A DNA stretch of 64,000 nucleotides from Lentisphaeria bacterium (GTDB lineage: Bacteria > Verrucomicrobiota > Lentisphaeria > Victivallales > UBA1829): the NCBI GenBank assembly GCA_017503375.1, contig JAFVTF010000008.1:64-64063 (forward strand), in the 5' to 3' direction. Every line of letters starts with the position of its first letter. Within the stretch, counting starts at the first letter, position 1. The notes under the pieces are model-generated. The model saw only the letters and a list, made by a program, of their open reading frames with translations. It was not told the origin of the DNA and ran no database searches. The position numbers and the translations under genes were made by a program. Shown piece after piece: positions 15,969 to 51,721 of this stretch.

Positions 15969-15991
15969 ACGTGCAACCCTTATGGCGTGTT

Positions 15992-16624: not shown

Positions 16625-16649
16625 TAGATTCTCTCCTTATGTTAATTTT

Positions 16650-17687
16650 TTAACTTTGTTTTTTTCTTTGTATCGAAGAGTGTCTGATCTGAAGTGAGAC
16701 AGACAATAACTGATTTTGTATTTTTTTCCCTTTTTTCTTTTCGATGGCATCAATGATGGAATCAGTGACAATCTTTCCCATTTTTTCAAAATCCTGAACA
16801 ACACTGGAAAGCATGGGATAAGTCGTTTCAGAGATCATGGAACCGCCGAATCCGATCAGCGAAAAAACCTCCGGAACATGATACCCTTTAAAAAATGCAA
16901 TGTTATTCAATGCCGATGCAAGAACATCTGATTCACAAATCACGCCATCCACTTGATTTTTCAGCAAATCCGATAACACCGATTCCATATATTTCAAATC
17001 ATGGGAACGGGAATAGTCAATCCGCTGAAGATACGGTGTTTCCTCCGGATAAATCTTCCGGATTCCGGACTCAAATCCGGAAATACGGCGTATTTTATAC
17101 TCAATATCCGGAATCACTTCTGATTTTCCGGTGTAAAGATAAACAATTTTTCGGTGTCCGCTCTCTTTCAGATAACGGACAGATTCCATCACTCCGGCAG
17201 CGTCATCTGTCGTAACTCCGATCCCATCCGGATTGCTTAAATTCACAGTTCCGTAAGGAATTTTTTCATGGTCCAGCAATTCTGCCAACGGTTCAATCTG
17301 TCTCAGCTGGGAAACGTGAAAAATCACTCCGGCAACGCGCCATCCGGTGAGTTTCCGCAACAAAGCTTCCGGCGAATCTCCAATATGATGAACAATCAGA
17401 GTATATCCCCGTTCTCCCGCTGCTTCGATCACGCCATTCTGAATCCGTCCGGTATATTCCACGGTTCCCATATCAGAGTGAACAAATGCCAGAACATTAC
17501 TGTGTTTTTTCCCGATGGCAGCCGCCATTTGATTTTTACTGTATCCCAACCGGGAGGCTGTCTCCAGAATCAGCTGACGCGTCTCCGGACGCAACGATTG
17601 CGCACGGGGATGGTCATTCAAAACCTGGGAGACCGAACACAAATTGATCCCTGTCTCCCGGGAAATGTCTTTGAGGGTAACAGCCAT
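16650..17687 (-). CDS. LacI-family transcriptional regulator
   Basis: N-terminal HTH VTLKDISRETGINLCSVSQVLN. A periplasmic-binding-protein-like sugar-binding core of ~280 aa follows. Confidence 0.85.
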   Translation of the reverse strand: MAVTLKDISRETGINLCSVSQVLNDHPRAQSLRPETRQLILETASRLGYSKNQMAAAIGKKHSNVLAFVHSDMGTVEYTGRIQNGVIEAAGERGYTLIVHHIGDSPEALLRKLTGWRVAGVIFHVSQLRQIEPLAELLDHEKIPYGTVNLSNPDGIGVTTDDAAGVMESVRYLKESGHRKIVYLYTGKSEVIPDIEYKIRRISGFESGIRKIYPEETPYLQRIDYSRSHDLKYMESVLSDLLKNQVDGVICESDVLASALNNIAFFKGYHVPEVFSLIGFGGSMISETTYPMLSSVVQDFEKMGKIVTDSIIDAIEKKKGKKIQNQLLSVSLQIRHSSIQRKKQS

Positions 17688-17707
17688 GATTGCTTATCAC
17701 TCCGTTT

Positions 17708-23787: not shown

Positions 23788-23824
23788 TTTTAAGACATTT
23801 TTCAAAAATAAATCATTTTCTCTC

Positions 23825-23860
23825 TTGACATTATTGTGTACTGCAAACTATATTGTACGC
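23825..23860 (+). promoter_or_regulatory. Promoter of the regulator gene with candidate operator box
   Basis: TTGACA (23825-23830), N18, then TATATT (23849-23854). ATTGTGTAC at 23833-23841 and ATTGTACGC at 23852-23860. The 22-mer cttgacattattgtgtactgca matches 25902-25923 at 20 of 22 positions. Confidence 0.55.
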
Positions 23861-23882
23861 AAACAGAAAGAGGATGCGGAAA

Positions 23883-24995
23883 ATGCCTTTACCGTCAAAA
23901 CAGGAAATGATTTATTCCTATCTTCTCGATATGTTTGAGAAAGATACATTAAAAAATGGACGGCTGCCATCGGAAAATGAACTGGCGGCACGGATCGGTG
24001 TCGCCCGGAGAACTTTGCGGTACACATTGGCGCGTTTGGAAAATGAAGGGTTTCTGATCCGGACGAATCACGGAACCTTTCTCCGGAAAAAACACCGTCG
24101 GACAGAAGCACTTCCCGTTACCGTACTGGTTCCATGTTCAGATTATCATACAGCCAGCGGTTACTGGTCCTCGTTTCTGACTCATCAGACGATACTTGGC
24201 GCAATGGAAGCATCTGTCAAAGCGGGGACGTATGCAGTAACACTTCCCGTTACCACAGATAACGATCCGACAGTATTGGATATCCGGCAGATCAACCATC
24301 TTGATCAGGAAAGCATGGTCATTTTTCATGGAATCGAATGGGCTCCCGGATTGATTCCGATTCTGATCGAACGCAAATGCCGCTGCGGTATCATCAGTTA
24401 CTATAAAGTTGACCTGGAAAAGTTTGCAAAATATGATATCCCTATTTTCAATATTTATTTGGAGGAATACTGGGAATGTCTGGGGAGCGCAGTGGAACAG
24501 CTTGTTCAAGATGGCGCGGAAAAAGTTGTTTATTTCGGAAGAAATTCCACGGATATTTCCAAAAATGGGAAGATCTATTTTGAAGAGGCCTGTAAAAAAC
24601 TGCAATTGGAATGTGATATGAAGGAACAATATGTTCTTTTTGACAAAAATCTTCCGCATCATCAACTGCTTGCGCAGCTGCGGGATATCTATAACCGCAC
24701 TCATTTTGACGGATTGATTTTTGACAGCAATCTTTATTATGAACTGCCCGGAGATCTGGATTTCTTCGGAGAGACCGGTATTCCCGGACGGACAAAGATG
24801 ATTCTGGGGGTAAGTGAATTACTGAAGCATCCTGACCTTCCGGAGCATACGCGGGTTCTGCACCGTCCGCAGAAAAAAATCGCAGGACAACTGGCTGAGT
24901 TTTTGCTTTCCGGAAAGAAAGGTCAGTTTTCATGTCATTGTGAATATGAATTTCCCTTGCTGGAAGAATTTTTCCGGCGGACAGAACGGGAATAA
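23883..24995 (+). CDS. AraR-type regulator (GntR winged-HTH fused to a LacI/PBP1-like sugar-binding domain)
   Basis: HTH region LPSENELAARIGVARRTLRYTLARLENEGFL, followed by ~300 aa with alternating beta/alpha PBP-like pattern. The track start at 23853 is TTG. ATG at 23883 has a GAAAGAGGA RBS at about 8 nt; ATG at 23874 is also possible. Confidence 0.75.
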   Translation: MPLPSKQEMIYSYLLDMFEKDTLKNGRLPSENELAARIGVARRTLRYTLARLENEGFLIRTNHGTFLRKKHRRTEALPVTVLVPCSDYHTASGYWSSFLTHQTILGAMEASVKAGTYAVTLPVTTDNDPTVLDIRQINHLDQESMVIFHGIEWAPGLIPILIERKCRCGIISYYKVDLEKFAKYDIPIFNIYLEEYWECLGSAVEQLVQDGAEKVVYFGRNSTDISKNGKIYFEEACKKLQLECDMKEQYVLFDKNLPHHQLLAQLRDIYNRTHFDGLIFDSNLYYELPGDLDFFGETGIPGRTKMILGVSELLKHPDLPEHTRVLHRPQKKIAGQLAEFLLSGKKGQFSCHCEYEFPLLEEFFRRTERE

Positions 24996-25019
24996 GATAT
25001 ACAGTTAAGGAGATGTGAT

Positions 25020-25883
25020 ATGGGATTTTTGAAAGATCGTATTTGGACCTGGGGCTATGTGCTTGACAAAGTTCCCTCCGCTGCGCCTTTTACTTTTGAA
25101 AAGACAAGATGCAGTCTGGAAACGCAAACTGCCTATCTCGGCGCAGAACGGACTTTTTACATGAACAGTATGTTCAGCCGGGAGCATATCGAAAAGAATT
25201 TCAAGGAGTGGGACCCGGAAATCATCGAAAATTGTACCGATAACCGTCTTTCCGATATGCACATGGACCGTTTGAAAAATATGAAGGAAATTTACTGCAC
25301 GCTGGAGCATGACAATTATCTGGAAAGTGCCATCCGCATTGCAACGCTTTCTCTCAAATACAAAAATATTGTTGGTGTTCATTTTGATGATTTTTGTGCT
25401 TCACGCGGCGCAAAAAAAGCACTTCCGGAAATTCATGACAGAATCAAAGAGATCAATCCGGCTTTGAAAATTGCGATAGTTACCTATTCTTTCTGGGATC
25501 AGGCGGAATATAAAGATACGGCTGAATATGTGGATCAGTATTCCCGCTGGTGCTGGGTTCCCTCGGAAGATTATTGGCGTCAGCACAAAGATGATATTGC
25601 CCGTTTGCGTGAGATTACCGGACCGGACAAGAAAATCGTACAGGGGATTTATCTTCATGATTTCGGCTCATCCGGATTGCCTGTCACGCAGTGTCTGAGC
25701 AAAGTTCCGATGGAAATTTTCCGGTACAGTGTGGAAACGATTTGTGAAAATACCTGGAACGGAACGCTGGACGGAATCATTCTGCCTCAAGCGGCATACT
25801 TCAGCTGTCTGAGCCATAAACCGCTGGTCAGTTTTCTGAAAGAATATGTTGACTGGTTTGACGGAACCACAACAGTTCTCTGA
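25020..25883 (+). CDS. Hypothetical cytoplasmic protein
   Basis: 287-aa ORF with an AAGGAG RBS, 24 nt after the regulator gene. No signal peptide and no recognised motif. Confidence 0.55.
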   Translation: MGFLKDRIWTWGYVLDKVPSAAPFTFEKTRCSLETQTAYLGAERTFYMNSMFSREHIEKNFKEWDPEIIENCTDNRLSDMHMDRLKNMKEIYCTLEHDNYLESAIRIATLSLKYKNIVGVHFDDFCASRGAKKALPEIHDRIKEINPALKIAIVTYSFWDQAEYKDTAEYVDQYSRWCWVPSEDYWRQHKDDIARLREITGPDKKIVQGIYLHDFGSSGLPVTQCLSKVPMEIFRYSVETICENTWNGTLDGIILPQAAYFSCLSHKPLVSFLKEYVDWFDGTTTVL

Positions 25884-25902
25884 AAAAAATGAAAATGAGG
25901 GC

Positions 25903-25932
25903 TTGACACTATTGTGTACAGCAGAGTAAAAT
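25903..25932 (+). promoter_or_regulatory. Promoter of the 15-kb enzyme operon with the same operator box
   Basis: TTGACA (25903-25908), N18, then TAAAAT (25927-25932). ATTGTGTACA at 25911-25920. Confidence 0.55.
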
Positions 25933-25968
25933 TTATTCAGAAAATGATAATATAAGATACTGAAAGGA

Positions 25969-28900
25969 ATGATAAAAATGTACAAGATGAAGCTGTCTGC
26001 GCTTTTGTTGACCGCAGCTTTAACAGTCGGTTCTTTTGCACAGAATCTGATTGAAAACAGCGGCTTTGAAACCGGGATTTCCAAATGGGGGCCTCCGAAA
26101 TGGAAACGCTATGACGGACGGGTCTGGCTTTTTCCGTCAGAAGACAAAGCAGTTTCTCAGGGTGCCGGCGGAAGCACTTCTCTGAAAATGGAGTGGACAA
26201 AAAAGCATATTTGCAATCTCTGGTATGACAAAGAGATTCCGCTGAATGGTTTGAAGGAAGTTGAGTTTTCTTTCTGGGGGAAAAGTATCGGATATGACAA
26301 TACACATATCCTTGAGCTTGCCGTCGAATTCCCGGATGCCAAAGATAAAAAACTGAAACTGACCAATGTCGGCAACAAATGGAACCGTCCGCCGGAAGAT
26401 TGGACTCATTTCAGTAAGATCGTCAAAGTTCCGGAAGGTGCAACCAAAGCGAAACTCTGTATCCGGATTCATGGATTCAAGAGTACAAAAGGCACCAGCT
26501 GGGCAGATAATATCTATTTCGGACCTGTTCAGAAAAAAGTAGATGAGCCGAAAGCAAAGAATGTGATCACGCTGAAACGCGGTGTTCCGGTTTGTGACCA
26601 CGGCGGAGTCTATTATCCGGGCGAACAGAAAATCTATTCTATTGAATTCTGTGATAATGCTGTCCCCGGAAAGAAAATGGATTTTATCTGGGAAATTCAG
26701 GATTTTGATAAGCAGAAGATCGCCGAAGGAAAGCAGTCTGTTACCATTCCTGCGGCGAAAGAAGGGGCTTTTCAGGTCAAACTCCCCGATTTGAAAGAGT
26801 TCCGCGGCTGGTTTGTCATGAAGGGAAAATTCATGGAAAACGGCAGAACTGTTGCTGAGGTGACAAGCACCGGGATCGTGATTGAAAAACAGAAAGGGAA
26901 ACGCGACCCCTTTTTCTCTGCGAAAACACCCGGAACTATTGAAAAACAGATTCGCATGGGGAACGGTTCCAGCAATTTTATCGCACAGCGCAGACACATG
27001 CAGACCGGACCGGACAGTTATTCCCGGAAAGAGGTGAAACGGCTGAAAGACTGGCTCGCAATGTGTGATAAATACGGCTTTGAACCGTATATCATTTTCC
27101 ATTCATCCCAGCATGCCACTCCCACCAATCCGCAGCAGCCTCTTTATATGCGGAAAATGATCAACGATAAAATCGCCAAAGATATCAATCCTTATGATGA
27201 GGCATACTACCAGACATGGAAAAATTTCTTTGCCATGCTTGCAAAAACAGCAAACGGAAGAGTCCGTGACTGGTATATGGGCGATGAGATTTACAATACT
27301 CACCACCGTTCAAAATGGGAAATTCCCCACTATATCGGCGTGCAGAAAGCTCTTTATGAAACGATCAAAAAGATTGATCCCAAGATGATGGTTGGCGGCG
27401 GAGGAACGTTTATGGACAAACACCCCATCGGCAAAAAGATGTGGCCTCATGTCAAAAATCATCTTGATGGTTTGACCTGCAGTTTATATCTCGGAAAAGT
27501 GACCGTTGCCAAAGGTGTTGCCATTGATGGTCCGGAAACCGGAAAACTTGCGGGCCGTTTTAAACATACCCGTTCCATAATCGGGAACAAACCGTTTATT
27601 GCCGCAACAGAAAGCGGTTACAACTTTCTGGATTTCCCGAAAATCGATTCCGATGCTGTCAAGGAAATGGGAAAAATCAATGCAAGAAACCTTGTCGTTC
27701 TGCGTGCAATGGGGGTCCGGAAATGGACATTCTTCACCTTTGACAACAATATTTCCTATGAATCCAAAAAGAATGGTTCCGGCAGAACAGATTACGGAAT
27801 GTGGAATAAAAAGACCGGATGTCCGAAACCCCATGCCGCAACCTGGGCTGTTGCCGCGCGTGCATTGGCTTTCGTGACGGATCCTGTGGATGCTTCTCCC
27901 CGGCCGGATGTTTACTGCTATGTGTTCAAAAAGGGAAATAAAACACTGGCTGCATTCTGGGCATATATCAAGGGGGATGTTGATGCGAAAATCAACATGC
28001 CTTCCGACTGGTCCGGTATGGATTTCCTCGGAAAACCGCTGAAAGGAAAGAAGGGTCTCAATACGTTGAAACTCAATGACAGAGTGCTTTATCTGGAATT
28101 CGATGCACCGCAGGATGCTGTTGTCAATGCATTCCGCAATGGAAATTATGTCCTGCCGGAAGTTTATGTGACCCTGCACCGTGTCAGCGGCGGAAAAGTC
28201 TGTGTTGATGTACAGAACAAATCCGGCAAGGATTTGAAAGCTGAAGTTATTCTCAACAAACAGCCGTCAAGAAAGGTTACGGTCAAACGCGATACGATCG
28301 GAAAAGTTCTCTTCAATTGTCCTCCGGGCAAAGGGAAACTTTTTGCGTCTGCCGTGGTTAACGGAGTGAAATATCCGGTGGAAAAAGATGATGAATGGTA
28401 TGGCGTTGCAAAATTGGCATCTGCGCCTTCCATTCAGAACGGAGTGCTGAAAGGTTTTGAAAAAGCCAAACCTCTGGTCATGGATACTCAGAAACATCTG
28501 AAACCCACAGAGATCGACGTTTACGGTTACTGGACCGGAAAGAATGACTTGTCTGCCAAAGTTTATCTCGGCTATGACAAAAATTATTTCTATCTGGGTG
28601 CAGAAATCACAGATGATGTTCAGATTTCCCGGAATTCCGGTGTTCAGTCCTGGAGTCAGGATTCTCTGCAATTTGCTTTTGACACTGCAAACAATGCTTA
28701 TGACCCTGTTCTTTCTCCCGGCGGTTATGCTGATGATGACCGGGAATATGTTGCAGCCGCAACTCCGAAAGGACCGGAACTCTTCAGCTGTAAAGAACGG
28801 AAAGTGATCGGTAAACCGCAAATCGTCCGGAATGGAAACAAAACCATTTATCTGATGCGTTTTGCCTGGTCAGAGCTTGGCAGTTTGAAACCTGTCAAAG

Positions 28901-29037
28901 GTACTGTATTCGGATTCAATCTGGTCGCATTTGATTATGATTCCATGGAGGCAAAAATCTCCTGCCAGATGGAATTTTCAATGGGTATCACTTACGGTAA
29001 GTTCCCTGCAATGTTCAGACGTTTTATTCTGGAGTAA
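25969..29037 (+). CDS. Secreted multidomain glycosidase-like protein, paralogue A (CBM4_9-like, Ig-like, clan GH-A-like barrel, CBM9-like)
   Basis: Signal peptide ending SFAQ. QNLIENSGFE...WADNIYFGPV (CenC-type CBM). DWYMGDEIYN and ATESGYNFLDFP are candidate acid/base and nucleophile. C-terminal [25 protein letters not shown]. The start could instead be ATG 25978 or 25987. Confidence 0.8.
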   Translation: MIKMYKMKLSALLLTAALTVGSFAQNLIENSGFETGISKWGPPKWKRYDGRVWLFPSEDKAVSQGAGGSTSLKMEWTKKHICNLWYDKEIPLNGLKEVEFSFWGKSIGYDNTHILELAVEFPDAKDKKLKLTNVGNKWNRPPEDWTHFSKIVKVPEGATKAKLCIRIHGFKSTKGTSWADNIYFGPVQKKVDEPKAKNVITLKRGVPVCDHGGVYYPGEQKIYSIEFCDNAVPGKKMDFIWEIQDFDKQKIAEGKQSVTIPAAKEGAFQVKLPDLKEFRGWFVMKGKFMENGRTVAEVTSTGIVIEKQKGKRDPFFSAKTPGTIEKQIRMGNGSSNFIAQRRHMQTGPDSYSRKEVKRLKDWLAMCDKYGFEPYIIFHSSQHATPTNPQQPLYMRKMINDKIAKDINPYDEAYYQTWKNFFAMLAKTANGRVRDWYMGDEIYNTHHRSKWEIPHYIGVQKALYETIKKIDPKMMVGGGGTFMDKHPIGKKMWPHVKNHLDGLTCSLYLGKVTVAKGVAIDGPETGKLAGRFKHTRSIIGNKPFIAATESGYNFLDFPKIDSDAVKEMGKINARNLVVLRAMGVRKWTFFTFDNNISYESKKNGSGRTDYGMWNKKTGCPKPHAATWAVAARALAFVTDPVDASPRPDVYCYVFKKGNKTLAAFWAYIKGDVDAKINMPSDWSGMDFLGKPLKGKKGLNTLKLNDRVLYLEFDAPQDAVVNAFRNGNYVLPEVYVTLHRVSGGKVCVDVQNKSGKDLKAEVILNKQPSRKVTVKRDTIGKVLFNCPPGKGKLFASAVVNGVKYPVEKDDEWYGVAKLASAPSIQNGVLKGFEKAKPLVMDTQKHLKPTEIDVYGYWTGKNDLSAKVYLGYDKNYFYLGAEITDDVQISRNSGVQSWSQDSLQFAFDTANNAYDPVLSPGGYADDDREYVAAATPKGPELFSCKERKVIGKPQIVRNGNKTIYLMRFAWSELGSLKPVKGTVFGFNLVAFDYDSMEAKISCQMEFSMGITYGKFPAMFRRFILE

Positions 29038-29040
29038 AAT

Positions 29041-32000
29041 ATGAAAACATTGTCCGCACTTTTTCTGACAGCCGCAATGACGGTTGGAGCTTTCGCTCAG
29101 AATCTTGTGGAAAACAGCAGTTTTGAAAACGGGGTTTCTCTGTGGAGTCCTCCCGGCTGGAAACGTCCTGATGCCCGGATATGGCTTGCCCCTGTTTGGG
29201 ATAAAGCCAACTCTCAGGGAGCAGGCGGAACCGCTTCATTGAAACTGGATTGGACAAATAAACATATTTGTTATGTCTGGTATAAAAAAGAGATACCTCT
29301 CAACGGGATGAAAGAAGTTGAATTTTCCTTCTGGGCAAAGAGCGCAGGTTATGAAGATATCAGCATTATTGAAATGTCTGTTGAGTTTCCGAGAATCAAA
29401 GACCCGAAAAAGAAGAATATTGTTCTGGGAAGCAAATGGAACCGCCCGCCGAAAGAATGGACCTGTTACAGCAAAGTGATTACAGTGCCGGAGGGTGCGA
29501 CGAATGCAAAACTCTGCATCAGAATCCATGGGTTCAAGAGCAAAAAAGGTACCAGCTGGATCGATAATGTCTACTTCGGACCTGTTCAGAAAAAAGGGAA
29601 TGAACCGAAAGCAAAGAACGTTATCACACTGAAACGCGGTGTTCCGGTATGTGATCACGGCGGGATTTATTATCCCGGTGAACAAATGACCTACTCTGTT
29701 GAATTCAAGGAAAATTCCGCTCCCGGAAGGAAAATGGATTTCTCATGGGAGATTCAGGATTTTGACGGGAAAAAAGTTGCAGATGGAAAGCAGACCGTAA
29801 CACTTCCTTCTTCAAAAGAGGGTGCTTTTCAGATCAAACTTCCTGTGTTGAAAGATTTTCGCGGGTGGTTTGCGCTCAAGGGAAAATTTACCGAAAACGG
29901 AAGAACAGTTTCAGAAATGCTGAGTTCCGGTGTGATCGTGGAAAAACAGCAGGGAAAACGTGACCCGTTTTATTCAGCCAAGGACCCCGGCACAATTGAA
30001 AAACAGATCCGTATGGGGAACGGTTCCTGCAATTATCTTGCCCAGCGCAGGTTCATGCAGTCCGGTCCGGACAGTCTTGATCCGAAAGCGGAAAAACGGC
30101 TGAAAAATTGGCTTGAAATGTGTGAAAAATATGGATTTGAACCTTACATTATTTTTCATGTTTCCCAATATACAACGCCGAACAATCAGCAGCAGCCGCT
30201 TTACATGCGGAAAATGATCAACGATAAACTTGCCAAAGGGATTTATCCGTACGATGAAGCATATTTCCGGACTTGGAAAAATTACTTTGCTCAGCTTGCA
30301 AAAATTTCCAATGGAAAAGTCCGTGACTGGTATATCGGTGATGAGATTTATAATGTTTATCACCGCTGCAAATGGGAAGTTCCCCACTATGTAGGCGTTC
30401 AGAAAGCCCTTTATGAAACGATCAAGAAAATCGATCCGGCAATGATGGTCGCAGGCGGCGGAACGTTCATGGATAAAGACCCGCTTGGAAAAAGAATGTG
30501 GCCGCAGGTGAAAGATTATCTGGATGGACTCTCCTGCAGTCTGTATCTGGGAAAAGGAACCGTTGCCAAAGGTGTTGATCTGGATGGTCCGGAAACAGGT
30601 AAACTGGTGGAAAGATTCAAGGACACCCGTTCTGTGATCGGAAATAAAAAATTTGTTTCCGGAACAGAAAGCGGATACAGTTTTCTTGATTTCCCGAAAC
30701 TTGATTCGGAAAAAGTGAAAGAGATCGGGAAGATCAATGCCAGAAATCTTGTCGTTCTGCGTGCAATGGGTGTCCGGAAATGGACATTCTTCACCTTTGA
30801 TAATGACGGTATGTACGAATCCAAGAAATGGGGTTCCGGCAGAATTGATTACGGGATGTGGAACAAAGCCTCCGGTTCTCCGAAACCTCATGCGGCAACC
30901 TGGGCAGTTTCTGCCAGAGCATTGGCGTTTGTGACTGATCCGGTGGATGCTTCCCCCTGTCCGGATGTGTATTGTTATGTGTTCCGCAAAGGAAACAAAA
31001 CGCTTGCGGCATTCTGGGCTTTCGTCAAGGAAGATATTGATGCAGTGATCAACATGCCCTCCGATTGGAGCGGTGTGGATTTTCTCGGCAGACCGTTGAA
31101 GGGGAAAGCCGGAAAGAATCATTTCAAACTGAATGACAGAGTTCTTTATCTGGAATTCAATGCTCCGCAGAAGACTGTTGCAGAGGCGTTCCGCAGCGGA
31201 AAATATGTGCTGCCGGAAATTTATCTGAGTTTGCATCGTGTCAGCGGCGGAAAAGTCTGTGTCACCTTGAAAAACAAATCCGCAAAAGATTTGAAAGCTG
31301 AAGTTGCGTTGAATAAACTGGCTGCGAAAAATATTTCCATCAAACGCGGAACGGTTGCAGAGGTTCTCTTTGATTGTCCTCCGGGCAATGGAAAACTTTC
31401 AGCCGCCGCACTGGTCAACGGTGTGAAATATCATGCGGAAAAAGAAGATGAATGGTATGGAGCAGCAAAACTTTCCGTTGCGCCTTCCATTCAGAATGGA
31501 GAATTGAAAGGGTTTGAAAAAGCCAAACCTCTTGTCATGGATTCCATTAAATATCTGAAACCTGCGGATATCGACAGTCACGGAATCTGGACCGGAAAGG
31601 ATGATTTGTCTGCAACGATTTATCTGGGATATGATAAAAACTATTTTTATCTGGGAGCTGTTGTCACGGATGATATCCCGGTTACCCGTTATGCCGGAGA
31701 GTTGTCCTGGAATCAGGATGCCGTTCAGTGTGCGTTTGACAGCGGCAACAACAGTTTTGACCCGGTTCTTTCACCGGGCGGTTATGATGCGGATGACAGT
31801 GAATTTATCGCTTCTGCCACCCCGAAAGGACCGGAACTGTTCTGCTATGTCGGTTCCAATGCGATCCAGCGGAAGATGATCGGCAAACCGCAAATTGTCC
31901 GCAAAGGAGACAAGACTGTTTATCTGATCCGGTTCCCCTGGTCATATCTTGGCAAGCTGAAACCGGTTCCGGGAACAGTTTTTGGATTCAATGTGGTTGC

Positions 32001-32109
32001 TTTTGATTTTGATGCAAAGAATGCAACGACATCCTGTCAAATGGAATTTTCACCGGGGATCACCTATGGAAAGACCCCCGCATTGTTCAAACGTTTCATT
32101 CTGGAATAA
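29041..32109 (+). CDS. Secreted multidomain glycosidase-like protein, paralogue B
   Basis: 1022 aa, collinear with paralogue A over its full length and starting 3 nt after A. Same motifs (DWYIGDEIYN, GTESGYSFLDFP). Confidence 0.85.
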   Translation: MKTLSALFLTAAMTVGAFAQNLVENSSFENGVSLWSPPGWKRPDARIWLAPVWDKANSQGAGGTASLKLDWTNKHICYVWYKKEIPLNGMKEVEFSFWAKSAGYEDISIIEMSVEFPRIKDPKKKNIVLGSKWNRPPKEWTCYSKVITVPEGATNAKLCIRIHGFKSKKGTSWIDNVYFGPVQKKGNEPKAKNVITLKRGVPVCDHGGIYYPGEQMTYSVEFKENSAPGRKMDFSWEIQDFDGKKVADGKQTVTLPSSKEGAFQIKLPVLKDFRGWFALKGKFTENGRTVSEMLSSGVIVEKQQGKRDPFYSAKDPGTIEKQIRMGNGSCNYLAQRRFMQSGPDSLDPKAEKRLKNWLEMCEKYGFEPYIIFHVSQYTTPNNQQQPLYMRKMINDKLAKGIYPYDEAYFRTWKNYFAQLAKISNGKVRDWYIGDEIYNVYHRCKWEVPHYVGVQKALYETIKKIDPAMMVAGGGTFMDKDPLGKRMWPQVKDYLDGLSCSLYLGKGTVAKGVDLDGPETGKLVERFKDTRSVIGNKKFVSGTESGYSFLDFPKLDSEKVKEIGKINARNLVVLRAMGVRKWTFFTFDNDGMYESKKWGSGRIDYGMWNKASGSPKPHAATWAVSARALAFVTDPVDASPCPDVYCYVFRKGNKTLAAFWAFVKEDIDAVINMPSDWSGVDFLGRPLKGKAGKNHFKLNDRVLYLEFNAPQKTVAEAFRSGKYVLPEIYLSLHRVSGGKVCVTLKNKSAKDLKAEVALNKLAAKNISIKRGTVAEVLFDCPPGNGKLSAAALVNGVKYHAEKEDEWYGAAKLSVAPSIQNGELKGFEKAKPLVMDSIKYLKPADIDSHGIWTGKDDLSATIYLGYDKNYFYLGAVVTDDIPVTRYAGELSWNQDAVQCAFDSGNNSFDPVLSPGGYDADDSEFIASATPKGPELFCYVGSNAIQRKMIGKPQIVRKGDKTVYLIRFPWSYLGKLKPVPGTVFGFNVVAFDFDAKNATTSCQMEFSPGITYGKTPALFKRFILE

Positions 32110-32121
32110 GGAGATATTTTG

Positions 32122-34356
32122 ATGAGTACTTATTTTTCACGGGAAAATCCACAGGATTTAAACAGGTATTATTCTCCGGATATTCTGATTGTCGGCGGCG
32201 GTATGGCTGGAATTTCGGCAGCGGTTGCGGCGGCACGGCTCGGGGCAAAAACTTTGCTGGTCCACAACCGTCCGGTTCTGGGCGGTCCTGCCGGAACGGA
32301 ATGTGAATGTGAATCCATCGGAGCATTGATCGTAGGCGGAACGAACTGGACGACCCGCGATGCCCGGGAAACAGGTCCCATCGAAGATTTCCGTATGACA
32401 ACGGAATATCTTTATGAAAACGGATGGCGCAATCATCTCAGTCAGGTTTTGCGTGATGTGGCGGAAAAAGAGGAAAATCTGACTCTTCTTCTGAATACGG
32501 AAGCCTATGATGTCAAGGTGGAAGATGGAAAAATCACGGAAATCCTTGCCCGGACTTTGAACAGTGATCTCACCAATTATATCAAGCCGAAAATGGTTCT
32601 GGATTGTTCCGGAGACTCTTTTGTGTCAGTCAAAGCCGGAGCACAGTACCGTCACGGCAGAGAAGCAAAAAGCGAATTCAATGAAACATTGGCTCCGGAT
32701 GAAGCAGACAGCTGCACGCTCGGTTCCAGTCTTTATTTCCGGGCAATCGATACCGGACACCCCGTTCCGTTCAAAGCACCGGAATGGGCGGAAAAGTTCA
32801 CCGATGAAATGTTGGGGCCCGGCCGTACTCACAAGGATCCCCGCAAAGGTTTCTGGTGGATCGAATGCGGCGGGGAAATGGATACTATCTGTGACAATGA
32901 AGTAATTTATAAAAAACTCCTCGGAATCGTTTACGGTGTTTGGGATCACATTAAAAATCACGGAGATCACAATGCGGAAAATTATGCGATCGAATGGATC
33001 TCAAGCATTCCGGCAAAACGGGAATCCCGCCGTATTATGGGGGATTATATTCTGACAGAAGGTGATGTGGTTGCTCATGCGGTTTATCCGGATGGTGTTG
33101 CTTACAGCGGCGGGAATCTGGATATTCACCCGCTCAAAGGGATTTTCAGCGGAAACCACCCCTGCGGTCCCCAGCACGGAATCATGTCTCCCGGACTTTA
33201 TCAGATCCCGCTGCGCTGTCTTTACGTGCCGGAAGTGAAAAACCTGATGATGGCAGGAAGAAATATCAGTGTTACCCATGCAGCATTGTCGTCGACCCGT
33301 CTGATGGGAACCTGTGCGTTGTGCGGTCAGGCTGCCGCTGCAACGGCGGTTCTCTGCTGTAAATATGGAGAAACTCCCCGGGATATTTCAGAATCCCGCA
33401 TGAAGGAGCTGCTCCGGATTCTTTACCGTGTGGACCATACCCTGCCGGATGTCGTTGTGGATGATCCGGATAACCTTTGCCGCAATGCAGATGTGAAAGT
33501 CTCTTCCAGTATGGGACTTTCTCTGCTGGATATGGAATGTGCCGGAACAGAAGCATTGGGAACCGGAGAAGCTCCTGCGGCACAGTCTTTCATTGCCACA
33601 ACACAGGAAATCCGGGAAGCAGCATTCCTTATGAATCATAACGGTTCCGAACCTGCAGAAGTCTGCGCGGAACTGGTTCTTCAGGAGGAAATGTATGACT
33701 TCAGCAAAGGAACTGTTCTTGCAGAGTCAAAAGTGCAGGTTGCACCGGGCAAAGCTCAGAAAGTTCTGTTCCGGTTCAATGCAGCTGTTGAATATGGAAA
33801 ACGTTATTACATCAGATTGAGCGGTCCGGCTTCTGTGGAAAGCTGTTTGAATAAACGGTATCTGCCCGGTATCTGGCGTTCCAATCTGCCGATTTCATGG
33901 CCGCCGCAGGGGGATAATACCAATCACAGTTTCAATCTGATTCCGGAGCAGAGACCTTTTGAAGGTGAAAATATAATCAAAAGCGAAAACCGCGGCGGTG
34001 ATGCGCTTTCCATCTGGATTTCCGATCCAAAGGCAGCCTTCCCGCAGACTGCTCAGGTCACGTTCCCGGAAAAGAAAACAGTTTCCTGCGTGGAACTGGT
34101 CTTTGATACCTCTCTCGAACACATCAATATTTATTCTTCTCAGCAAGAGTGCGTGAAAGAGTATGTTCTGGAAGGTATTTGCGGAGATAAAACAATTGTT
34201 CTGGCTGAGGAAAAAGACAATTATCTGCGGTTCCGGAAACATGTTTTCCCGCCTGTGGAACTTTCCGCGTTGCGTTTGACGGTCCGTTCAACCCGGGGAG
34301 ATGCTTCTGCCCGTGTCTATCAGATCAGAGCCTACGAAAAAGCGGAAATCTCTTAA
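32122..34356 (+). CDS. FAD-dependent oxidoreductase with C-terminal jelly-roll (discoidin-like) tail
   Basis: [28 protein letters not shown] dinucleotide fold at the N-terminus. No signal peptide. The track start at 32119 is TTG; ATG at 32122 follows AAGGAG by 8 nt. Confidence 0.8.
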
Positions 34357-34372
34357 TACTGGAGAATAGAAA

Positions 34373-37300: not shown

Positions 37301-37438
37301 GGGAATGTATTCGGGTTCAATTCCGTGATCTTTGATTTCGACAAACCGGATGCGACCATATCCTGTCAATTGGAATTTTCACCGGGGATCACTTACGGAA
37401 AGACCCCGGCTTTGTTTAAACGTTTTATCTTGGAATAA
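34373..37438 (+). CDS. Secreted multidomain glycosidase-like protein, paralogue C
   Basis: 1021 aa, collinear with A and B but more diverged. Motifs [10 protein letters not shown] and [12 protein letters not shown]. Same C-terminus [17 protein letters not shown] as B. Confidence 0.85.
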
Positions 37439-37451
37439 GGAGAAAGGTTTT

Positions 37452-38222
37452 ATGAAAACACAGAGAAAACAATTCACATTAATCGAATTGCTTGTCGTTA
37501 TTGCAATCATTGCAATTCTGGCAGGAATGCTGCTTCCGGCATTGAACAATTCAAGAGCAACAAGTTTGAGAACAAACTGTCAGGGCAATCTGAAACAATG
37601 GGGAACCGCGATACTCCAATATGCTTCAGATTATAACGATATCATTCTTCCCTGCAATGTCAAAGACAGTCCTGAGGAAAGCCGGGGAATGCTATACACC
37701 GATGTGACCCGCAGCTGGAATATGTTTGCCGCCCCTTACGTTGGGATGGATTTTACTGGGAAAGTCGCTGATAATGAAGGTTCAAGCAAAGGTGTTCCCC
37801 GGGAATGGCAGTTCGGTGTCATGAAATGTCCTGCGTCTCCGATCGGTGTTGGAACATTCATGTATGTTCAGTATGGAATGAATCAGTACAACACTGGCGG
37901 AAAACCTTATACTTCTCTTCCCGCCATTCAGAAATTCGGTCAGGCAAAACGTGCCAGCGGAATGTCTTATCTCATGGATTCCACAAATGTAAATACAAAT
38001 TTGGATGCTGTTGACACATCTCTGACAAAAGAACATGGGAGAGTTGCCACTACCCTCGGACAGTATTCCAACAGAAGCCGTCATCGCGGATACTGCAATA
38101 TCCTGTTCCTGGATGGTCATGTACAGTCTATGGCGGAAAAAGAAATGATGATGAACAAATGTTCCTCCAAATATGCTGAATTGAAAGTAAACGTACTTTT
38201 CGGCTTCGGCGGAAATTACTGA
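37452..38222 (+). CDS. Type IV pilin-like pseudopilin with H-X9-DG motif
   Basis: [36 protein letters not shown] and [12 protein letters not shown]. Start set at ATG 37452 (AAGGAGA RBS). The track start at 37332 lies inside paralogue C. Confidence 0.85.
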
Positions 38223-38234
38223 GTAAGGATAAAA

Positions 38235-39599
38235 ATGAATCAGTCAAATGTCAAAAACGAAACTGTCATGGAACGGCTTTGCAGAATCAAAGCTTCCCGT
38301 TCTCTGACCGGTGCTTTTGCAAACGTGCCCGCACGGGTTCTGCCCGCAAATACACATGTGAAATTTGAACTCAAAATACAGAATGCTTATTTCAAAAAAT
38401 ATGCAGATGAAATCGACGTGAAATATATCCGGGACGATCACCGTATGGCTGATGAATCAATCGCCCGTCTGACTCCCGACAGGGAACTGCTCTGGCAGAA
38501 AGTCAAATCCCATGTTTCCGGCGATACATTGTTCTTTGAACTGGATTTTTCCGGAGAACATGAACACTGGGTCGGAATTTCCGTGATCGACGGAACAACA
38601 GAATACCGGGAAGATTTTTATTTCTATACTCTGGAAGAAGACCTTCTGAAGTACAATGTTTATAAAGGAAGTGTTCATACCCACAGTACCGGATCTGACG
38701 GGAATTATCCTCCGGAATTTGTACCTGCTTACATGCGTCAGGCAGGGTATGACTTCACTGCCGTGACCGATCATAAAATCTATGAGCCAACCCTTCAGGC
38801 AATCGAAGCAATGAGCAAATTCGATTCCGGATTGGAAGTCTATCATGGAGAAGAAGCGGAAAGTTACGGGGCAGGAATCAATCATATCCTGAGTTTAGGC
38901 TCTTCCGCCTCTGTCAGCAATTGGGAATATGATCCCGAAAGCGATTTCAATGAACGGGTCGAAAAAATCAAACAGGAACTTGCCGGATATCCGGAACACG
39001 AAGCAAAATATGTTGCTCAGTTTGAAGCAATCACAAGCAAAATCAAAGAGCTGGGCGGGATTTCCGTCTTCTGCCATCCTTACTGGAAACAAAATGGACG
39101 TTATGCCAGTGCTCCGCTCATGACGGATCTCATTCTCCGGAGAGGAAACTTCGATGCGCTGGAACTGGGGAACTTCACCGTTCCGCGTATGGCATTGCTG
39201 AATGCCAAAGTCATGGAGGCTATCCGGGAATATCAGTTCCGGAAACCGTTCATCGGCAGCAGTGACTGGCATGGACGCCCCAGTCAGAAAGCAACCGTAG
39301 ACTATACCATCATCTTTGCGGACAGTGCAGCGTTCCCGGATTTTGCTGAAGCGGTTCGCTCGGAACGCTGTGTGGCAGTCGGCGGACAGAATGATGAATT
39401 CCCGTTCGGTCCATACCGTCTGGTGAAGTATGCACTGTTCCTGATGGATCACTATTTCAAGAAAATCCACGATCCTCTTTGCGCTCAGCAGGGGGATTTA
39501 ATATTGAAGGCGTTGAACGGAGATATGACCGTTCTTCCCGCCATCGCAGAGTTGAAAACACAAATAGCGGAAGCTCAAGCCGCTTTTTTCGGAAAGTAA
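38235..39599 (+). CDS. PHP-domain metal-dependent phosphoesterase-like protein
   Basis: PHP motifs VHTHSTGSDG, AVTDH, HGEE, FCHPYW, SSDWHG. An N-terminal ~140-aa extra domain. No obvious signal peptide. Confidence 0.7.
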   Translation: MNQSNVKNETVMERLCRIKASRSLTGAFANVPARVLPANTHVKFELKIQNAYFKKYADEIDVKYIRDDHRMADESIARLTPDRELLWQKVKSHVSGDTLFFELDFSGEHEHWVGISVIDGTTEYREDFYFYTLEEDLLKYNVYKGSVHTHSTGSDGNYPPEFVPAYMRQAGYDFTAVTDHKIYEPTLQAIEAMSKFDSGLEVYHGEEAESYGAGINHILSLGSSASVSNWEYDPESDFNERVEKIKQELAGYPEHEAKYVAQFEAITSKIKELGGISVFCHPYWKQNGRYASAPLMTDLILRRGNFDALELGNFTVPRMALLNAKVMEAIREYQFRKPFIGSSDWHGRPSQKATVDYTIIFADSAAFPDFAEAVRSERCVAVGGQNDEFPFGPYRLVKYALFLMDHYFKKIHDPLCAQQGDLILKALNGDMTVLPAIAELKTQIAEAQAAFFGK

Positions 39600-39608
39600 G
39601 AGGAATAA

Positions 39609-41336
39609 ATGAGTTTGATCAGTTACGCATCTACCGCATTGAAGGCGATTTCTGTTCCGTTCGGAACTGTTCCGGTGCAGGCAGATGATTTTTTCAAGTT
39701 CCACGGCGGCGAACCCGATGGAAAAATGGAAATGAAACTTTCCCGTTCCCGGACAGAACTTTTTCTGGAAGTGATCTGTCAGGAACCTGCTGAGATCCAC
39801 GCTCAGAATACAAAAAATGACTGGAGCATTTTTGAAAAAGGAGACCGTCTGGAAATCTTTTTCGGTACATTGGCTCCGGAACCGTGGCTGATGCAGTTTG
39901 CCATTGGCGCAGGCGGCGGAAAAGCCGACAACAGAGGTCTTGACGATCAATGGACCGCTGAGGTGGAAACCGGAACAAATTTTTGGAAAGCAAAAGCTGT
40001 ATTCCCTCTTTCCATTTTCAAAATGAACAATCTTTCCGTCTATTTCAATGTCTGCCGGTATGCTGAAGCCAGAAAGGAATATTCCTGCTGGACCAATCTG
40101 ACCCGCGGATTCCATGAAGTGGAAAATTACGGTCTCCTCCTGCTGGATGATTATTCCAGAGTTTACTTTGCAGAAACCGGAATTTACCCCGAAAAGGAAC
40201 TTTCCCGCGCAGAGTTTGAAACAGAAATGGAAAAACTCCGGGTTCCTGCTCACAAGATCCAGCATGGTCCCTGGATTACCAATCCGGCTCAGACAGAGAT
40301 GACTGTTTCTTTCGGAAGTGCCGGAAACTGCGGAGCATTTCTGGAATACCGTCAGAAAGGATCAGAAGAATGGACCCGGCTGGCATTTGACCGCCGGAAT
40401 GCGATCCTGATCCGCAACCGCAGAATCCATGTCCGCCATCTGCAGAATTTGAAACCCGGAACCGGTTATCAATACCGGGTCATTACACTGCATCCCATCA
40501 CCATGCAGGAAAATATCAGTGAAATTTATGAGTTCAAAACACTGGAAACAGAACGGAAAACATTCACGTTTACAGCATTTTCCGATCTTCATTCCAATAC
40601 CGGACGCGTTCGTGGACTGCTCGAAAAAGATGCCCTGAAAAAGAGTGATTTTCTGATCAATATCGGAGACCTCCTTTCCAGTGCCTGCGGAGATGAATCT
40701 TTCTACAACGGATTCCTGGATTTGGAAGCCGATTGGTGCAAAGAAACCGGAAAACCGCTGGTATTTATCCGCGGTAATCATGAACAGATCGGTTCTTTTG
40801 CCGGACTTTATCAGGAGCTGCTGCCCCATCCATCGGAAAAAAGCTATTTTACGTTCCGTCAGGGAGATACTCTTTTCATTGCTCTGGATGCCGGAAACGA
40901 TAAACCGGATGATGATGCCGGAATTTACAAGAATCAGGAAATGATTCAGGAACAGCAGGAATGGCTCAAAAAATTGTCCCGGACAGAAGAATACCGCAAT
41001 GCAAAATGGAGAATCGTTCTTATCCACATGCCCGTTTATGAACGGAGATATGATTCTGATATGGCATATTCCATGATCAGTCTGATCCCCGAAACAGATC
41101 TGATTCTCTCCGGTCACCTGCATAAATATTTTACCGTTGAACCGGAGACCGGAATCTGCAACTTCAAACGGGAAAACAGAACGACTGTTTCTGCCGATAA
41201 AATTCCCGCTTTGACCGTCGCTAACGATACTGATACTCTCCTTCAGGTGGATATCACAGAAGATCAGATCACAGTGAGTGCAATCAGCATTGACGGCGAA
41301 CTGATTGATTGCCGGACGGTTAAAGCAAAGAGATAA
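39609..41336 (+). CDS. Calcineurin-like metallophosphoesterase with N-terminal CBM9-like and purple-acid-phosphatase-type Fn3-like domains
   Basis: The five MPE motifs are present: AFSDLHS, NIGDLLS, IRGNHE, VLIHMP, LSGHLH. Confidence 0.8.
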   Translation: MSLISYASTALKAISVPFGTVPVQADDFFKFHGGEPDGKMEMKLSRSRTELFLEVICQEPAEIHAQNTKNDWSIFEKGDRLEIFFGTLAPEPWLMQFAIGAGGGKADNRGLDDQWTAEVETGTNFWKAKAVFPLSIFKMNNLSVYFNVCRYAEARKEYSCWTNLTRGFHEVENYGLLLLDDYSRVYFAETGIYPEKELSRAEFETEMEKLRVPAHKIQHGPWITNPAQTEMTVSFGSAGNCGAFLEYRQKGSEEWTRLAFDRRNAILIRNRRIHVRHLQNLKPGTGYQYRVITLHPITMQENISEIYEFKTLETERKTFTFTAFSDLHSNTGRVRGLLEKDALKKSDFLINIGDLLSSACGDESFYNGFLDLEADWCKETGKPLVFIRGNHEQIGSFAGLYQELLPHPSEKSYFTFRQGDTLFIALDAGNDKPDDDAGIYKNQEMIQEQQEWLKKLSRTEEYRNAKWRIVLIHMPVYERRYDSDMAYSMISLIPETDLILSGHLHKYFTVEPETGICNFKRENRTTVSADKIPALTVANDTDTLLQVDITEDQITVSAISIDGELIDCRTVKAKR

Positions 41337-50047: not shown

Positions 50048-50076
50048 TTGAAAATTATTGATTTCCGGTGTATATT
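50048..50076 (+). promoter_or_regulatory. Sigma70-like promoter candidate for pgi
   Basis: TTGAAA (50048-50053), N17, then TATATT (50071-50076), 45 nt upstream of ATG 50122. Confidence 0.45.
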
Positions 50077-50121
50077 TCCAGTCATTTGTATTGGACAATC
50101 AATCTCACAGGAGTATACATT

Positions 50122-51711: not shown

Positions 51712-51721
51712 GAATGGTAAA

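Follow-up and report, generated by a model that had tools for sequence, protein, structure and literature searches.

What does a type IV pilin-like gene contribute to an operon of secreted, carbohydrate-binding enzymes in which no transporter is encoded? The question is raised by a 64-kb stretch of contig JAFVTF010000008.1, from a Lentisphaeria bacterium (the window; all coordinates below are positions within it). The flagged region, at 23.8-41.3 kb, holds a compact set of genes, every one on the + strand: a regulator gene, a gene for a 287-aa protein and a seven-gene operon encoding three large paralogues, three other enzymes and a pilin-like protein of the H-X9-DG (DUF1559) family. In an earlier note, made from the sequence alone, this region was read as an analogue of a polysaccharide utilization locus (PUL), specific to the Planctomycetes-Verrucomicrobia-Chlamydiae (PVC) superphylum, in which a pilin-like fibre, in place of a dedicated transporter, may couple enzyme export or glycan capture. 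Our analysis favours, with modest confidence, a sugar-inducible glycan-degradation regulon with a locus-specific accessory pilin as the explanation of the whole. As a description of the design, the comparison with PULs stands, and it gains from a statistical enrichment of pilin genes beside secreted proteins; the substitution of a pilin for a transporter, however, is supported by nothing that we found. The features of the region are as follows.

23824-23854 (site 23825-23854), + strand: regulator promoter, TTGACA-N18-TATATT, with the shared box; 11/12 in the promoter scan
23853-24995 (likely start 23883), + strand: AraR-type regulator, 370-380 aa, with a GntR helix-turn-helix (HTH) and an effector domain like periplasmic-binding proteins (PBP-like)
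25020-25883, + strand: conserved hypothetical protein, 287 aa; open reading frame (ORF) with AAGGAG upstream
25902-25932 (site 25903-25932), + strand: operon promoter, TTGACA-N18-TAAAAT, with the operator-like box; 11/12 in the promoter scan
25969-29037, + strand: paralogue 1, 1022 aa, a predicted secreted multi-domain glycosidase like those of glycoside hydrolase clan GH-A
29041-32109, + strand: paralogue 2, 1022 aa, 73% identical to paralogue 1
32119-34356, + strand: oxidoreductase dependent on flavin adenine dinucleotide (FAD), 745 aa, PF12831
34373-37438, + strand: paralogue 3, 1021 aa, 60% identical to paralogue 1
37452-38222 (ORF from 37332), + strand: H-X9-DG (DUF1559) type IV pilin-like protein, 256 aa
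38235-39599, + strand: tentative PHP-superfamily (CehA/McbA-like) metallohydrolase, 454 aa, with an extra N-terminal domain
39609-41336, + strand: metallophosphoesterase, 575 aa, with Metallophos and Pur_ac_phosph_N domains

The seven operon genes are separated by 3, 9, 16, 13, 12 and 9 nt (the pilin start being taken as 37452) and lie behind TTGACA-N18-TAAAAT, the same gaps and promoter as had been described. This promoter is not the single one of the region, however: the regulator has its own, TTGACA-N18-TATATT, and the first gene listing had overlooked the 287-aa ORF between regulator and operon. In the 18.5 kb scanned, promoter-like sites overall are no more numerous than in shuffled sequence, so that position and conservation, and not the count, carry the argument. 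Only two sites match at 11 of 12 positions, those of the regulator and of the operon. These two promoters agree at 21 of 23 bases (CTTGACAyTATTGTGTACwGCA), and the box that they share overlaps the -35 element and the spacer, which is the position expected of a repressor and would imply autoregulation. In an independent metagenome contig (L002, described below), the same box, with TTGTGTAC and TTGTAC half-sites, lies upstream of the gene for the orthologous regulator. Exact copies occur nowhere else in any fetched locus, and the frequency of the box 10-mer in the window is not above chance; the case for an operator is therefore one of position and of conservation in L002, on which the shared box is probably a site for the regulator at both promoters. 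Rfam and tRNA scans of the window gave no matches.

The regulator gene would start at ATG 23883 (MPLPSKQEMIY), after AAGAGGA, a choice based on the sequence, on the position of the -10 element and on the gene call of the L002 orthologue. Its N-terminus matches Pfam GntR (PF00392, 35.4 bits; cut-off 27), and its sequence matches in the PDB are confined to HTH domains of the GntR family, including the DNA-binding domain of AraR (4egy). The C-terminal sugar-binding domain was undetected by Pfam. A PBP-type effector-domain profile, iterated from regulators of pilin loci, does match the C-terminus (E 2.7e-9), as well as that of the L002 orthologue (E 1.9e-17), although a local iterated profile is weaker evidence than a curated model. 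Searches with jackhmmer that started from the regulator C-terminus retrieved its own orthologue only, and the reverse search, from a PBP-type regulator, succeeded. The designation as AraR-type is thus upheld, with an effector domain that is divergent and recognized by the local profile only. The 287-aa gene is probably co-transcribed with the regulator. Its product has no signal peptide and no Pfam, NCBIfam or PDB match, and its homologues (80 clusters in Lentisphaeria, Victivallales and Opitutales, all "hypothetical") sit in variable gene contexts elsewhere and are absent from L002. The protein was considered as an operon-tied component and rejected because the context of its homologues varies.

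The three large paralogues are 60-73% identical, and each opens with a Sec-type signal ending FAQN. The motifs that had been picked out in them (QNL[IV]ENS.FE, W.DN.YFGPV, DWY..DEIYN and [AG]TESGY.FLDFP) were all found in the translations. By sequence, Pfam, NCBIfam and phmmer against the PDB gave only matches to carbohydrate-binding modules (CBMs). CBM9_1 at the C-terminal domain (E ~1e-7, above cut-off) is the sole domain that passes a curated threshold, while the N-terminal CBM_4_9 match is weak and below cut-off; of the two CBM-like flanks first proposed, the C-terminal one is thus firm and the N-terminal one less so. When Pfam was relaxed to E 5 on the central 641 residues, just a faint DUF7407 match was added. 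An AlphaFold2 (AF2) model of paralogue 1, built on 18 family members, has a mean predicted local distance difference test (pLDDT) score of 80.8 and shows a signal (residues 1-24), a CBM4_9-like sandwich (33-187), an immunoglobulin (Ig)-like domain (200-305), a TIM barrel (315-635), two beta-sandwiches (637-830) and a CBM9-like sandwich (860-1022). In the barrel segment, strands and helices alternate as a (beta/alpha)8 barrel with pLDDT mostly 80-95; E440 (in GDEIYN) comes after barrel strand 434-437, and strand 543-548 terminates in E548 (in TESGY).

Foldseek searches of the PDB associate the whole architecture with GH2 enzymes (E 1e-16 to 1e-19, low template modelling (TM) score) and the catalytic part with a GH39 structure from Bacteroides cellulosilyticus (5jvk, TM 0.65 over 490 residues), with probability 1.0 to both GH2 and GH39 barrels. 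Similarly, the family profile searched against PDB sequences finds 5jvk at E 0.025, with GH51 and GH10 weaker, around the first Glu. Neither Glu varies among the 18 family members, nor among a further 45 relatives of 17-41% identity, in which the sole invariant columns are these two Glu, one Tyr and one Trp. Even two homologues of 21-23% identity keep both (QNEIP or GQETP, and NNETGYS or NAETGYS). A barrel with invariant Glu at the ends of strands 4 and 7 is the pattern of clan GH-A. The paralogues therefore look like clan GH-A-like retaining glycosidases, nearest to GH39 and flanked by CBMs, with both retention and activity predicted from the model; E440 would be the acid/base and E548 the nucleophile. 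The barrel with clan GH-A motifs between CBM-like domains, as originally perceived, is thus corroborated.

Membership of GH39 itself was not borne out. Pfam Glyco_hydro_39 gives no match at E <=0.01, one of the 45 remote relatives touches PF01229, and an hhalign comparison of the catalytic profile with the GH39 of locus L001 aligns the acid/base Glu with the NEP motif at a probability of 10.6% only. The failure to place the proteins in a named family also stands for the libraries searched (Pfam, NCBIfam and PDB), in which no GH model reaches threshold. This catalytic domain is nevertheless widespread. A word-indexed search returned 20 close and two remote homologues, named "Lentisphaerae bacterium" where named, and an exhaustive profile search with the central domain (1.84 billion representatives) returned 1,315 clusters at E <=0.001 and 285 at E <=1e-10, counted at 50% identity. 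CBM9_1 is present in 26 and CBM_4_9 in 10 of 45 sampled members. Remote relatives show isolated weak matches to GH10, GH42, GH39 and Glyco_hydro_cc, all of clan GH-A, and their source names are all "hypothetical" except for one "endo-1,4-beta-xylanase A precursor", a label that it owes to its CBM9 domain. In sum, the domain fits no Pfam, NCBIfam or PDB family, and some 1,300 clusters are without a family name. The GH123_N-like proteins of the window and a 992-aa CBM9 protein of locus L003 were tried as members and rejected by direct comparison.

The other enzymes of the operon differ from the paralogues in their apparent location. The FAD protein is an oxidoreductase, as first stated (PF12831, FAD_oxidored, E 3e-73). 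Its PDB matches are limited to the dinucleotide-binding motif, its C-terminus is faintly discoidin-like (F5_F8_type_C, E 0.24 only), and an orthologue occupies the same position in L002. Two phosphoesterases had been announced. That at 39609-41336 holds, with Metallophos (PF00149) at 63.7 bits (E 4e-17), Pur_ac_phosph_N at E 5e-8 and all five metallophosphoesterase motifs in the translation (SDLH, GDLL, GNHE, IHMP and GHLH). It has a further N-terminal domain of ~200 aa, and its N-terminus, MSLISYAS (..LKA), kept in the L001, L002 and L006 orthologues, is not a canonical signal. The match of the other, the 454-aa product of 38235-39599, is only weak: NCBIfam NF038032 (CehA/McbA) scores 56 bits (E 3.8e-15), short of the required 80, the E-value is 0.11 for Pfam PHP and ~0.07 for the PHP domains of PolX in the PDB, and an HxH motif is present (VHTHS). 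It is tentatively a PHP/CehA-McbA-type metallohydrolase, with orthologues in L002 and L006. A relationship with the other PHP-like protein of the window, at 5395-6579, was rejected on comparison. The combination of two metal-dependent esterases with an FAD enzyme invites the speculation that the substrate is a decorated, possibly phosphorylated, glycan.

No Sec signal is found on the FAD oxidoreductase, the PHP-like protein or the metallophosphoesterase, and by this feature the three appear cytoplasmic. The products of the exported enzymes must then enter through a transporter encoded elsewhere. Pfam scans of the window proteins found no SusC/D, TonB-dependent receptor, major facilitator superfamily (MFS) or phosphotransferase system (PTS) component, and the syntenic loci L001, L002, L003 and L006 contain no transporter genes. 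The lone ATP-binding cassette (ABC) protein of the window, at 1122-3068, has two ATPase domains and an ABC_tran_Xtn linker with no membrane domain found, a layout by which it is taken to be a soluble ABC-F-type ATPase. The absence of transporters, which the earlier note had stressed, is therefore real, but it does not follow that the pilin acts in a transporter's stead, and with three enzymes that lack Sec signals, the products must be imported through a route encoded elsewhere.

What, then, is the pilin-like protein? Its gene starts at 37452, with a leader MKTQRKQ ahead of F+1. The product matches PF07596 (DUF1559/SBP_bac_10) at 46.1 bits (cut-off 23.3) and TIGR04294 (H-X9-DG) at 21.5 (cut-off 19), and by these profiles is a genuine member of the H-X9-DG/DUF1559 family, in agreement with the first reading. 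The N-methylation domain is recognized by TIGR02532 (21.9; cut-off 16.3), with PF07963 just under its cut-off (20.5; 21.2), and the N-terminus also matches the GspG and GspH models. Of the class III signal, the protein has the leader, F+1 and E+5, which do not vary among the pilins, and lacks Gly(-1). The AF2 model (pLDDT 92.4) has a 50-residue N-terminal helix (residues 10-60), the only part that matches solved pilins (1ay2, 2hi2 and 8tj2; gonococcal PilE and Myxococcus PilA), at E 0.1-0.8. The globular domain has no significant match, so that no binding function can be read from the structure. A solute-binding-protein (SBP) fold for DUF1559 was considered and, as this confident model matches no SBP in the PDB, it is kept below as a low-probability rival only.

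Among 46 pilin paralogues of ~30-40% identity, 27 columns are invariant, mostly in F8-L31 of the N-terminal helix but including two Cys and the C-terminal D-G; H211, D221 and G222 are conserved. The three pilin genes of the window differ at synonymous sites in the helix region, which indicates that the conservation of the helix results from purifying selection and not from gene conversion. An invariant helix fits a single shared assembly machine. In a related Lentisphaeria contig (L091), a prepilin peptidase gene (A24_N_bact and Peptidase_A24, 2952-3815) adjoins a gene for a 776-aa protein without a Pfam domain; this peptidase is a candidate processor of pilins that lack Gly(-1).

The pilin also travels with the enzymes. 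In L002, a 126-kb JGI contig, the order is GntR regulator, paralogue, split paralogue (195 + 822 aa), FAD oxidoreductase, two paralogues, pilin, PHP-like protein and metallophosphoesterase. L006 has a paralogue, the same split pair, a pilin fragment, the PHP-like protein, the metallophosphoesterase and GHL6, and L001 (GCA_045639325.1) has a paralogue, the pilin, the metallophosphoesterase, GH39 and two GH123_N-like proteins. The window pilin is 79% identical to its orthologue in L002 and 65% to that in L001, versus 30-31% to the other two pilins of the window. Over the database as a whole, the orthologues span 98% to 45% identity, below which the next sequences are at 41% or less. This gap between orthologues and paralogues implies that the variable domain of the pilin is inherited with the enzyme family.

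The split paralogue is itself worth recording. In two independent assemblies (L002, 4662-5249 and 5267-7735; L006, 3367-3954 and 3972-6440), the split falls exactly at the linker behind the N-terminal CBM-like domain and yields a 195-aa secreted protein and an 822-aa remainder without a signal peptide. Clusters of 822 aa recur (P0010, P0013 and P0014). The arrangement may reflect either a genuine division between domains or a pseudogene common to both assemblies.

Two further H-X9-DG genes are present in the window, and all three are accompanied, each in its own module, by a sugar-type regulator and large secreted proteins. The recurrence of the design, which had been noticed on both sides of the region, is confirmed at the following positions.

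8694-19684, - strand: sibling module A, with a GHL6 enzyme upstream, LacI, pilin and two secreted GH123_N-like proteins
16650-17687, - strand: LacI regulator of module A
15992-16624, - strand: H-X9-DG pilin of module A
12534-16013 and 8694-12521, - strand: secreted GH123_N-like proteins of module A
52872-59783, + strand: sibling module C, with LacI, pilin, a 182-aa protein, a 1130-aa secreted protein and a Gfo/Idh/MocA oxidoreductase
53942-54682, + strand: H-X9-DG pilin of module C

Directly downstream of module A lie a class II aldolase/short-chain dehydrogenase fusion with the architecture of rhamnulose-1-phosphate aldolase (6603-8516, - strand) and the weak PHP-domain protein (5395-6579, - strand). 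The GHL6 gene has a weak alpha-L-fucosidase match too. There are thus hints that module A handles deoxy-hexose (rhamnose or fucose) glycans. In module C, the 182-aa ORF (54661-55209) is a stand-alone copy, with a signal peptide, of the N-domain of the 1130-aa protein (55234-58626), with a jackhmmer E-value of ~1e-80.

More generally, the neighbourhoods of pilin genes were compared in 80 sampled loci, one contig each, from species-representative genomes and all encoding relatives of the pilin; genes and Sec signals were called with simple rules, and each genome contributed one or a few loci. Of 75 pilins, 24 have a signal-peptide protein of at least 500 aa encoded on the same strand no more than two genes away, versus 9.9 +/- 2.2 expected from random non-pilin genes of the same loci, and none of 2000 permutations reaches 24. 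Enrichment of H-X9-DG genes beside secreted genes, which had been named in advance as the test of the idea, is thus observed, with a crude caller. Large secreted neighbours occur at a frequency of 13-17% at positions -1 and +1 and of 0-6% three or more genes away, and the position directly after the pilin is where they are commonest (12 of 72 at +1). In the 21 large neighbours, the domains are Ig, DUF4838, GH123_N, beta-helix, heparinase, discoidin, laminin-G, PQQ and phosphoesterase, or none; in many of these proteins they are related to glycans. Mid-size non-secreted neighbours carry Peripla_BP_3 in 14 of 43 cases, with a GntR head in eleven and a LacI head in four.

The association with a regulator is narrower. 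In the 35 Lentisphaerota loci, a PBP-type regulator stands at -1 for 11 of 36 pilins and never downstream, whereas the 45 other loci, mostly of Verrucomicrobiota and Planctomycetota, contain one such regulator in all. The link between pilin and large secreted protein persists in these 45 loci (9 of 39 versus 3.9 expected). The layout of regulator, pilin and secreted enzyme is therefore one that recurs across Lentisphaerota, polar and lineage-specific, and the label "PVC-specific" has to be divided: the regulator-pilin link is found only in the Lentisphaerota loci, and the pilin-secreted protein link in other loci also. The clearest outside example is L009 (4366-11388), in which two divergent GntR + Peripla_BP_3 regulators are each accompanied by one or two pilins and by large proteins without a Pfam domain. 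It is one of three additional pilin loci with pre-computed annotation, which differ among themselves: the pilin locus of L008 adjoins a GH36 enzyme, and L010 has a 3,977-aa protein and a GH3 enzyme in the vicinity of its pilin.

Several elements of this picture are already in print. In Tuwongella, 91 proteins with N_methyl and SBP_bac_10 domains have been reported with no function given (Seeger et al. 2021, PMC8567305); the same study noted frequent signal-peptide genes on the flanks of DUF1559 genes and that T. immobilis proteins with both domains fractionate with detergent-soluble membrane fractions (PMC8567305). In Planctopirus, the family is the largest paralogue group, with 68 copies, two of them essential, and unknown function (PMC10632474). 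Dextran-binding pilus-like fibres have been documented in Planctomycetes (Planctopirus, Gemmata; PMC5394234), and in Akkermansiaceae the type IV-like pilus locus MUL2 (Amuc_1099-1102), in which Amuc_1102 is described as resembling an archaeal-type pilin, has been tied to the foraging of mucin and fucoidan (PMC13174399). The concept that fibres help PVC bacteria to capture glycans thus has forerunners. The role proposed for the pilin had been called experimentally uncharacterised, which is accurate for the H-X9-DG family, for which no assigned function was found in the literature searched, but not for glycan capture by fibres (PMC5394234, PMC13174399). In the same literature, we found no account of one pilin per operon under sugar-sensing repressors in Lentisphaerota, nor of the fixed polarity, the co-inheritance of pilin and enzyme or the loss of Gly(-1).

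The explanation that we prefer for the locus as a whole, the sugar-inducible regulon with an accessory pilin of its own, would work as follows. An AraR-type repressor would bind the box at the two near-identical promoters, of which one would drive the regulator and 287-aa genes and the other the seven-gene operon. The three paralogous, predicted retaining glycosidases would be exported through Sec; the oligosaccharides that they release would be imported by a transporter encoded elsewhere. The FAD oxidoreductase and the two metal-dependent esterases would then act on these in the cytoplasm. The near-invariant class-III-like helix would plug the pilin into a shared machine of the type II secretion or type IV pilus kind, and through its variable globular domain it would serve the operon's own enzymes or the glycan. 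Most likely, the pilin would aid the enzymes across the outer membrane, or hold enzymes or substrate at the surface.

A number of observations weigh against this explanation. The glycosidase assignment depends on a model and on weak profile matches (5jvk at E 0.025, hhalign at ~11%), and in the close family Asp, not the usual Asn, precedes the putative acid/base Glu. The globular domain of the pilin has no solved counterpart in the PDB, where no solute-binding protein was matched either. No gene for secretion or pilus machinery lies in the window. Residue -1 is Q, S or R in the window pilins (37452, 53942 and 16624 on the reverse complement), and Gly(-1) occurs in only 5 of 118 close homologues, although G or A is the commonest residue there in a wider PVC sample. 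Gly(-1) is the classical requirement of prepilin peptidase, so that processing and fibre assembly are not assured. Finally, the neighbourhood statistics come from crude gene and signal calling in loci chosen for containing a pilin, and some pilin loci have no such neighbours.

For the pilin, a machine subunit that serves the enzymes ranks first among the candidate roles, followed by glycan capture, by periplasmic binding outside a fibre and by incidental adjacency. The closest rival is a more specific form of the preferred explanation, namely that the pilin is a cargo-specific pseudopilin similar to those in type II secretion systems (T2SSs), which recruits the Sec-exported enzymes of the operon to a shared secretin for passage through the outer membrane. 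In so definite a form it seems rather unlikely to us. The frequency of large secreted proteins at +1 (12 of 72), the co-inheritance of pilin and enzyme family and the matches to GspG and GspH are as it would predict, and the invariant helix is consistent with one assembly machine; however, no T2SS genes are nearby, Gly(-1) is missing, and these data do not separate it from surface tethering or glycan binding. Moreover, we know of no cargo-specific pseudopilin in the T2SSs that have been studied.

It is unlikely, and less probable than cargo recruitment, that the pilin is instead part of a surface fibre, as a subunit or tip that captures glycan and would so enrich the substrate for the enzymes expressed with it, which is the glycan-capture idea of the earlier note. 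Precedents exist within the PVC group in the dextran-binding fibres (PMC5394234) and in MUL2 (PMC13174399), and pilins with locus-specific globular domains, co-regulated with enzymes by sugar-sensing regulators, would suit such a role. Yet the globular domain contains no recognizable carbohydrate-binding fold, the paralogues already bear two CBM-like domains each, and Amuc_1102 is described as resembling an archaeal-type pilin, with no sign seen of its belonging to the H-X9-DG family.

A third proposal, improbable in our judgement, is that the pilin forms no fibre and is a periplasmic protein anchored in the inner membrane, uncleaved or else cleaved without polymerizing, that binds oligosaccharide for an unlinked transporter. 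In Sulfolobus, the "bindosome" consists of sugar-binding proteins with pilin-type signal peptides, which provides an analogy. The idea was prompted by the Pfam name SBP_bac_10; it would fill the missing uptake step of an operon without a transporter, and both the absence of Gly(-1) in most Lentisphaeria members and the recovery of the two-domain T. immobilis proteins in detergent-soluble membrane fractions (PMC8567305) are compatible with it. On the other hand, a confident model (pLDDT 92) matches no solute-binding protein of the PDB, strict conservation of F+1, E+5 and the whole helix points to a need for filament packing, beyond that of a plain anchor, and no transporter is linked to the pilin genes. 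Lastly, that the adjacency is incidental, through chance or through selfish or duplicating cassettes without a glycan role, is disfavoured as very unlikely: the family is huge (more than 7,700 matches, a lower bound, with three in the 64-kb window), its 68-91 copies are "evenly spread" on the chromosome in planctomycete genomes (PMC10632474, PMC8567305) and some pilin loci have no glycan-related neighbours, but the permutation tests speak against chance, the polarity of regulator, pilin and secreted protein is strict, orthologous pilins hold their operon position across assemblies, and synonymous divergence indicates long-term purifying selection.

The consequences extend beyond this operon. 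In Planctomycetota, Verrucomicrobiota and Lentisphaerota, few paralogue families are larger than DUF1559/H-X9-DG, and the locus and its two siblings make its role testable through a concrete hypothesis, one pilin per sugar-regulated enzyme operon. A broader view, which we offer as a tentative possibility, is that glycan foraging in Lentisphaerota, and more loosely in the PVC group at large, is built on pilin cassettes and not on SusC/D, with DUF1559 as a combinatorial library of fibre subunits processed independently of Gly(-1). Every sugar-sensing regulator would turn on an operon that encodes both its secreted enzymes and an H-X9-DG pilin of its own. The variable head of each pilin would then let a shared fibre of the type II/type IV kind export, dock or feed a specific set of enzymes, and the hundreds of DUF1559 paralogues per genome would be substrate- or cargo-specific subunits. 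The clan GH-A-like family of ~1,300 clusters is a candidate new CAZy family of gut and environmental Lentisphaerota. In addition, were the link with the pilin functional, the signature of regulator, pilin and enzyme could flag glycan loci in PVC genomes that are invisible to PUL predictors based on SusC/D.

Some other genes of the window deserve mention. The ORF 59984-62458 (- strand) encodes an 824-aa protein made up almost entirely of BspA-type leucine-rich repeats (LRR_5, E 3e-144), on which the simple rule used found no signal peptide. A gene for ThyX, the flavin-dependent thymidylate synthase (4658-5386, - strand), is fully overlapped by ORF 4649-5449 (+ strand), which indicates that the long antisense ORFs of the window, many of which also lie opposite the paralogues, are not genes. 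The ORF of a Ser/Thr protein kinase (51491-52744, + strand) overlaps that of phosphoglucose isomerase (50068-51711, + strand) by ~220 nt, and the true start of the kinase is probably further downstream.

Comparison with known systems helps to define what is particular to this locus. The paralogues share with GH39 and clan GH-A a (beta/alpha)8 barrel followed by a beta-sandwich (5jvk, TM 0.65) and Glu at the ends of strands 4 and 7, ~108 residues apart, with later invariant Tyr and Trp; with GH2 they share the order of sandwich, Ig domain, barrel and sandwiches. They differ from GH39 in falling below every GH model, in the replacement of Asn by Asp, in their CBM4_9-like and CBM9-like flanks and in having relatives that are called "hypothetical". 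The pilin has the short basic leader, the invariant F+1 and E+5 and the hydrophobic helix of ~50 residues of T2SS pseudopilins and type IV pilins. Unlike these, it belongs to a family in which Gly(-1) is mostly absent and the globular domain has no solved counterpart, and H-X9-DG genes are scattered in catabolic operons, with many copies per genome, and not grouped in machinery clusters.

The regulator has its counterpart in AraR of Bacillus subtilis, in which a GntR HTH is fused to a LacI/GalR-type domain and which controls an autoregulated arabinose regulon. Here also a GntR HTH is paired with a sugar-binding domain of that type, and the regulator gene and a catabolic operon share one operator-like box with TTGTAC-type half-sites, which we take to resemble the AraR operator. 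The two differ in that the effector domain of the window regulator is too divergent for Pfam and in the genes that are controlled.

As in Sus-like PULs, secreted glycan enzymes are co-localized and co-regulated with a dedicated sugar-responsive regulator, in several modules per genome (three in the window). In contrast to such loci, neither the window nor the syntenic loci contain SusC/SusD or any transporter, the regulator is a putative one-component cytoplasmic repressor and not a hybrid two-component or extracytoplasmic function (ECF)/anti-sigma system, and a pilin-like gene is a regular member. With MUL2 and the dextran-binding fibres, the locus has in common the superphylum, in which pilus-like fibres have been linked, by experiment or imaging, with the attachment and uptake of glycans; whereas those are single dedicated loci or undefined fibres, here a different pilin accompanies each sugar-regulated operon.

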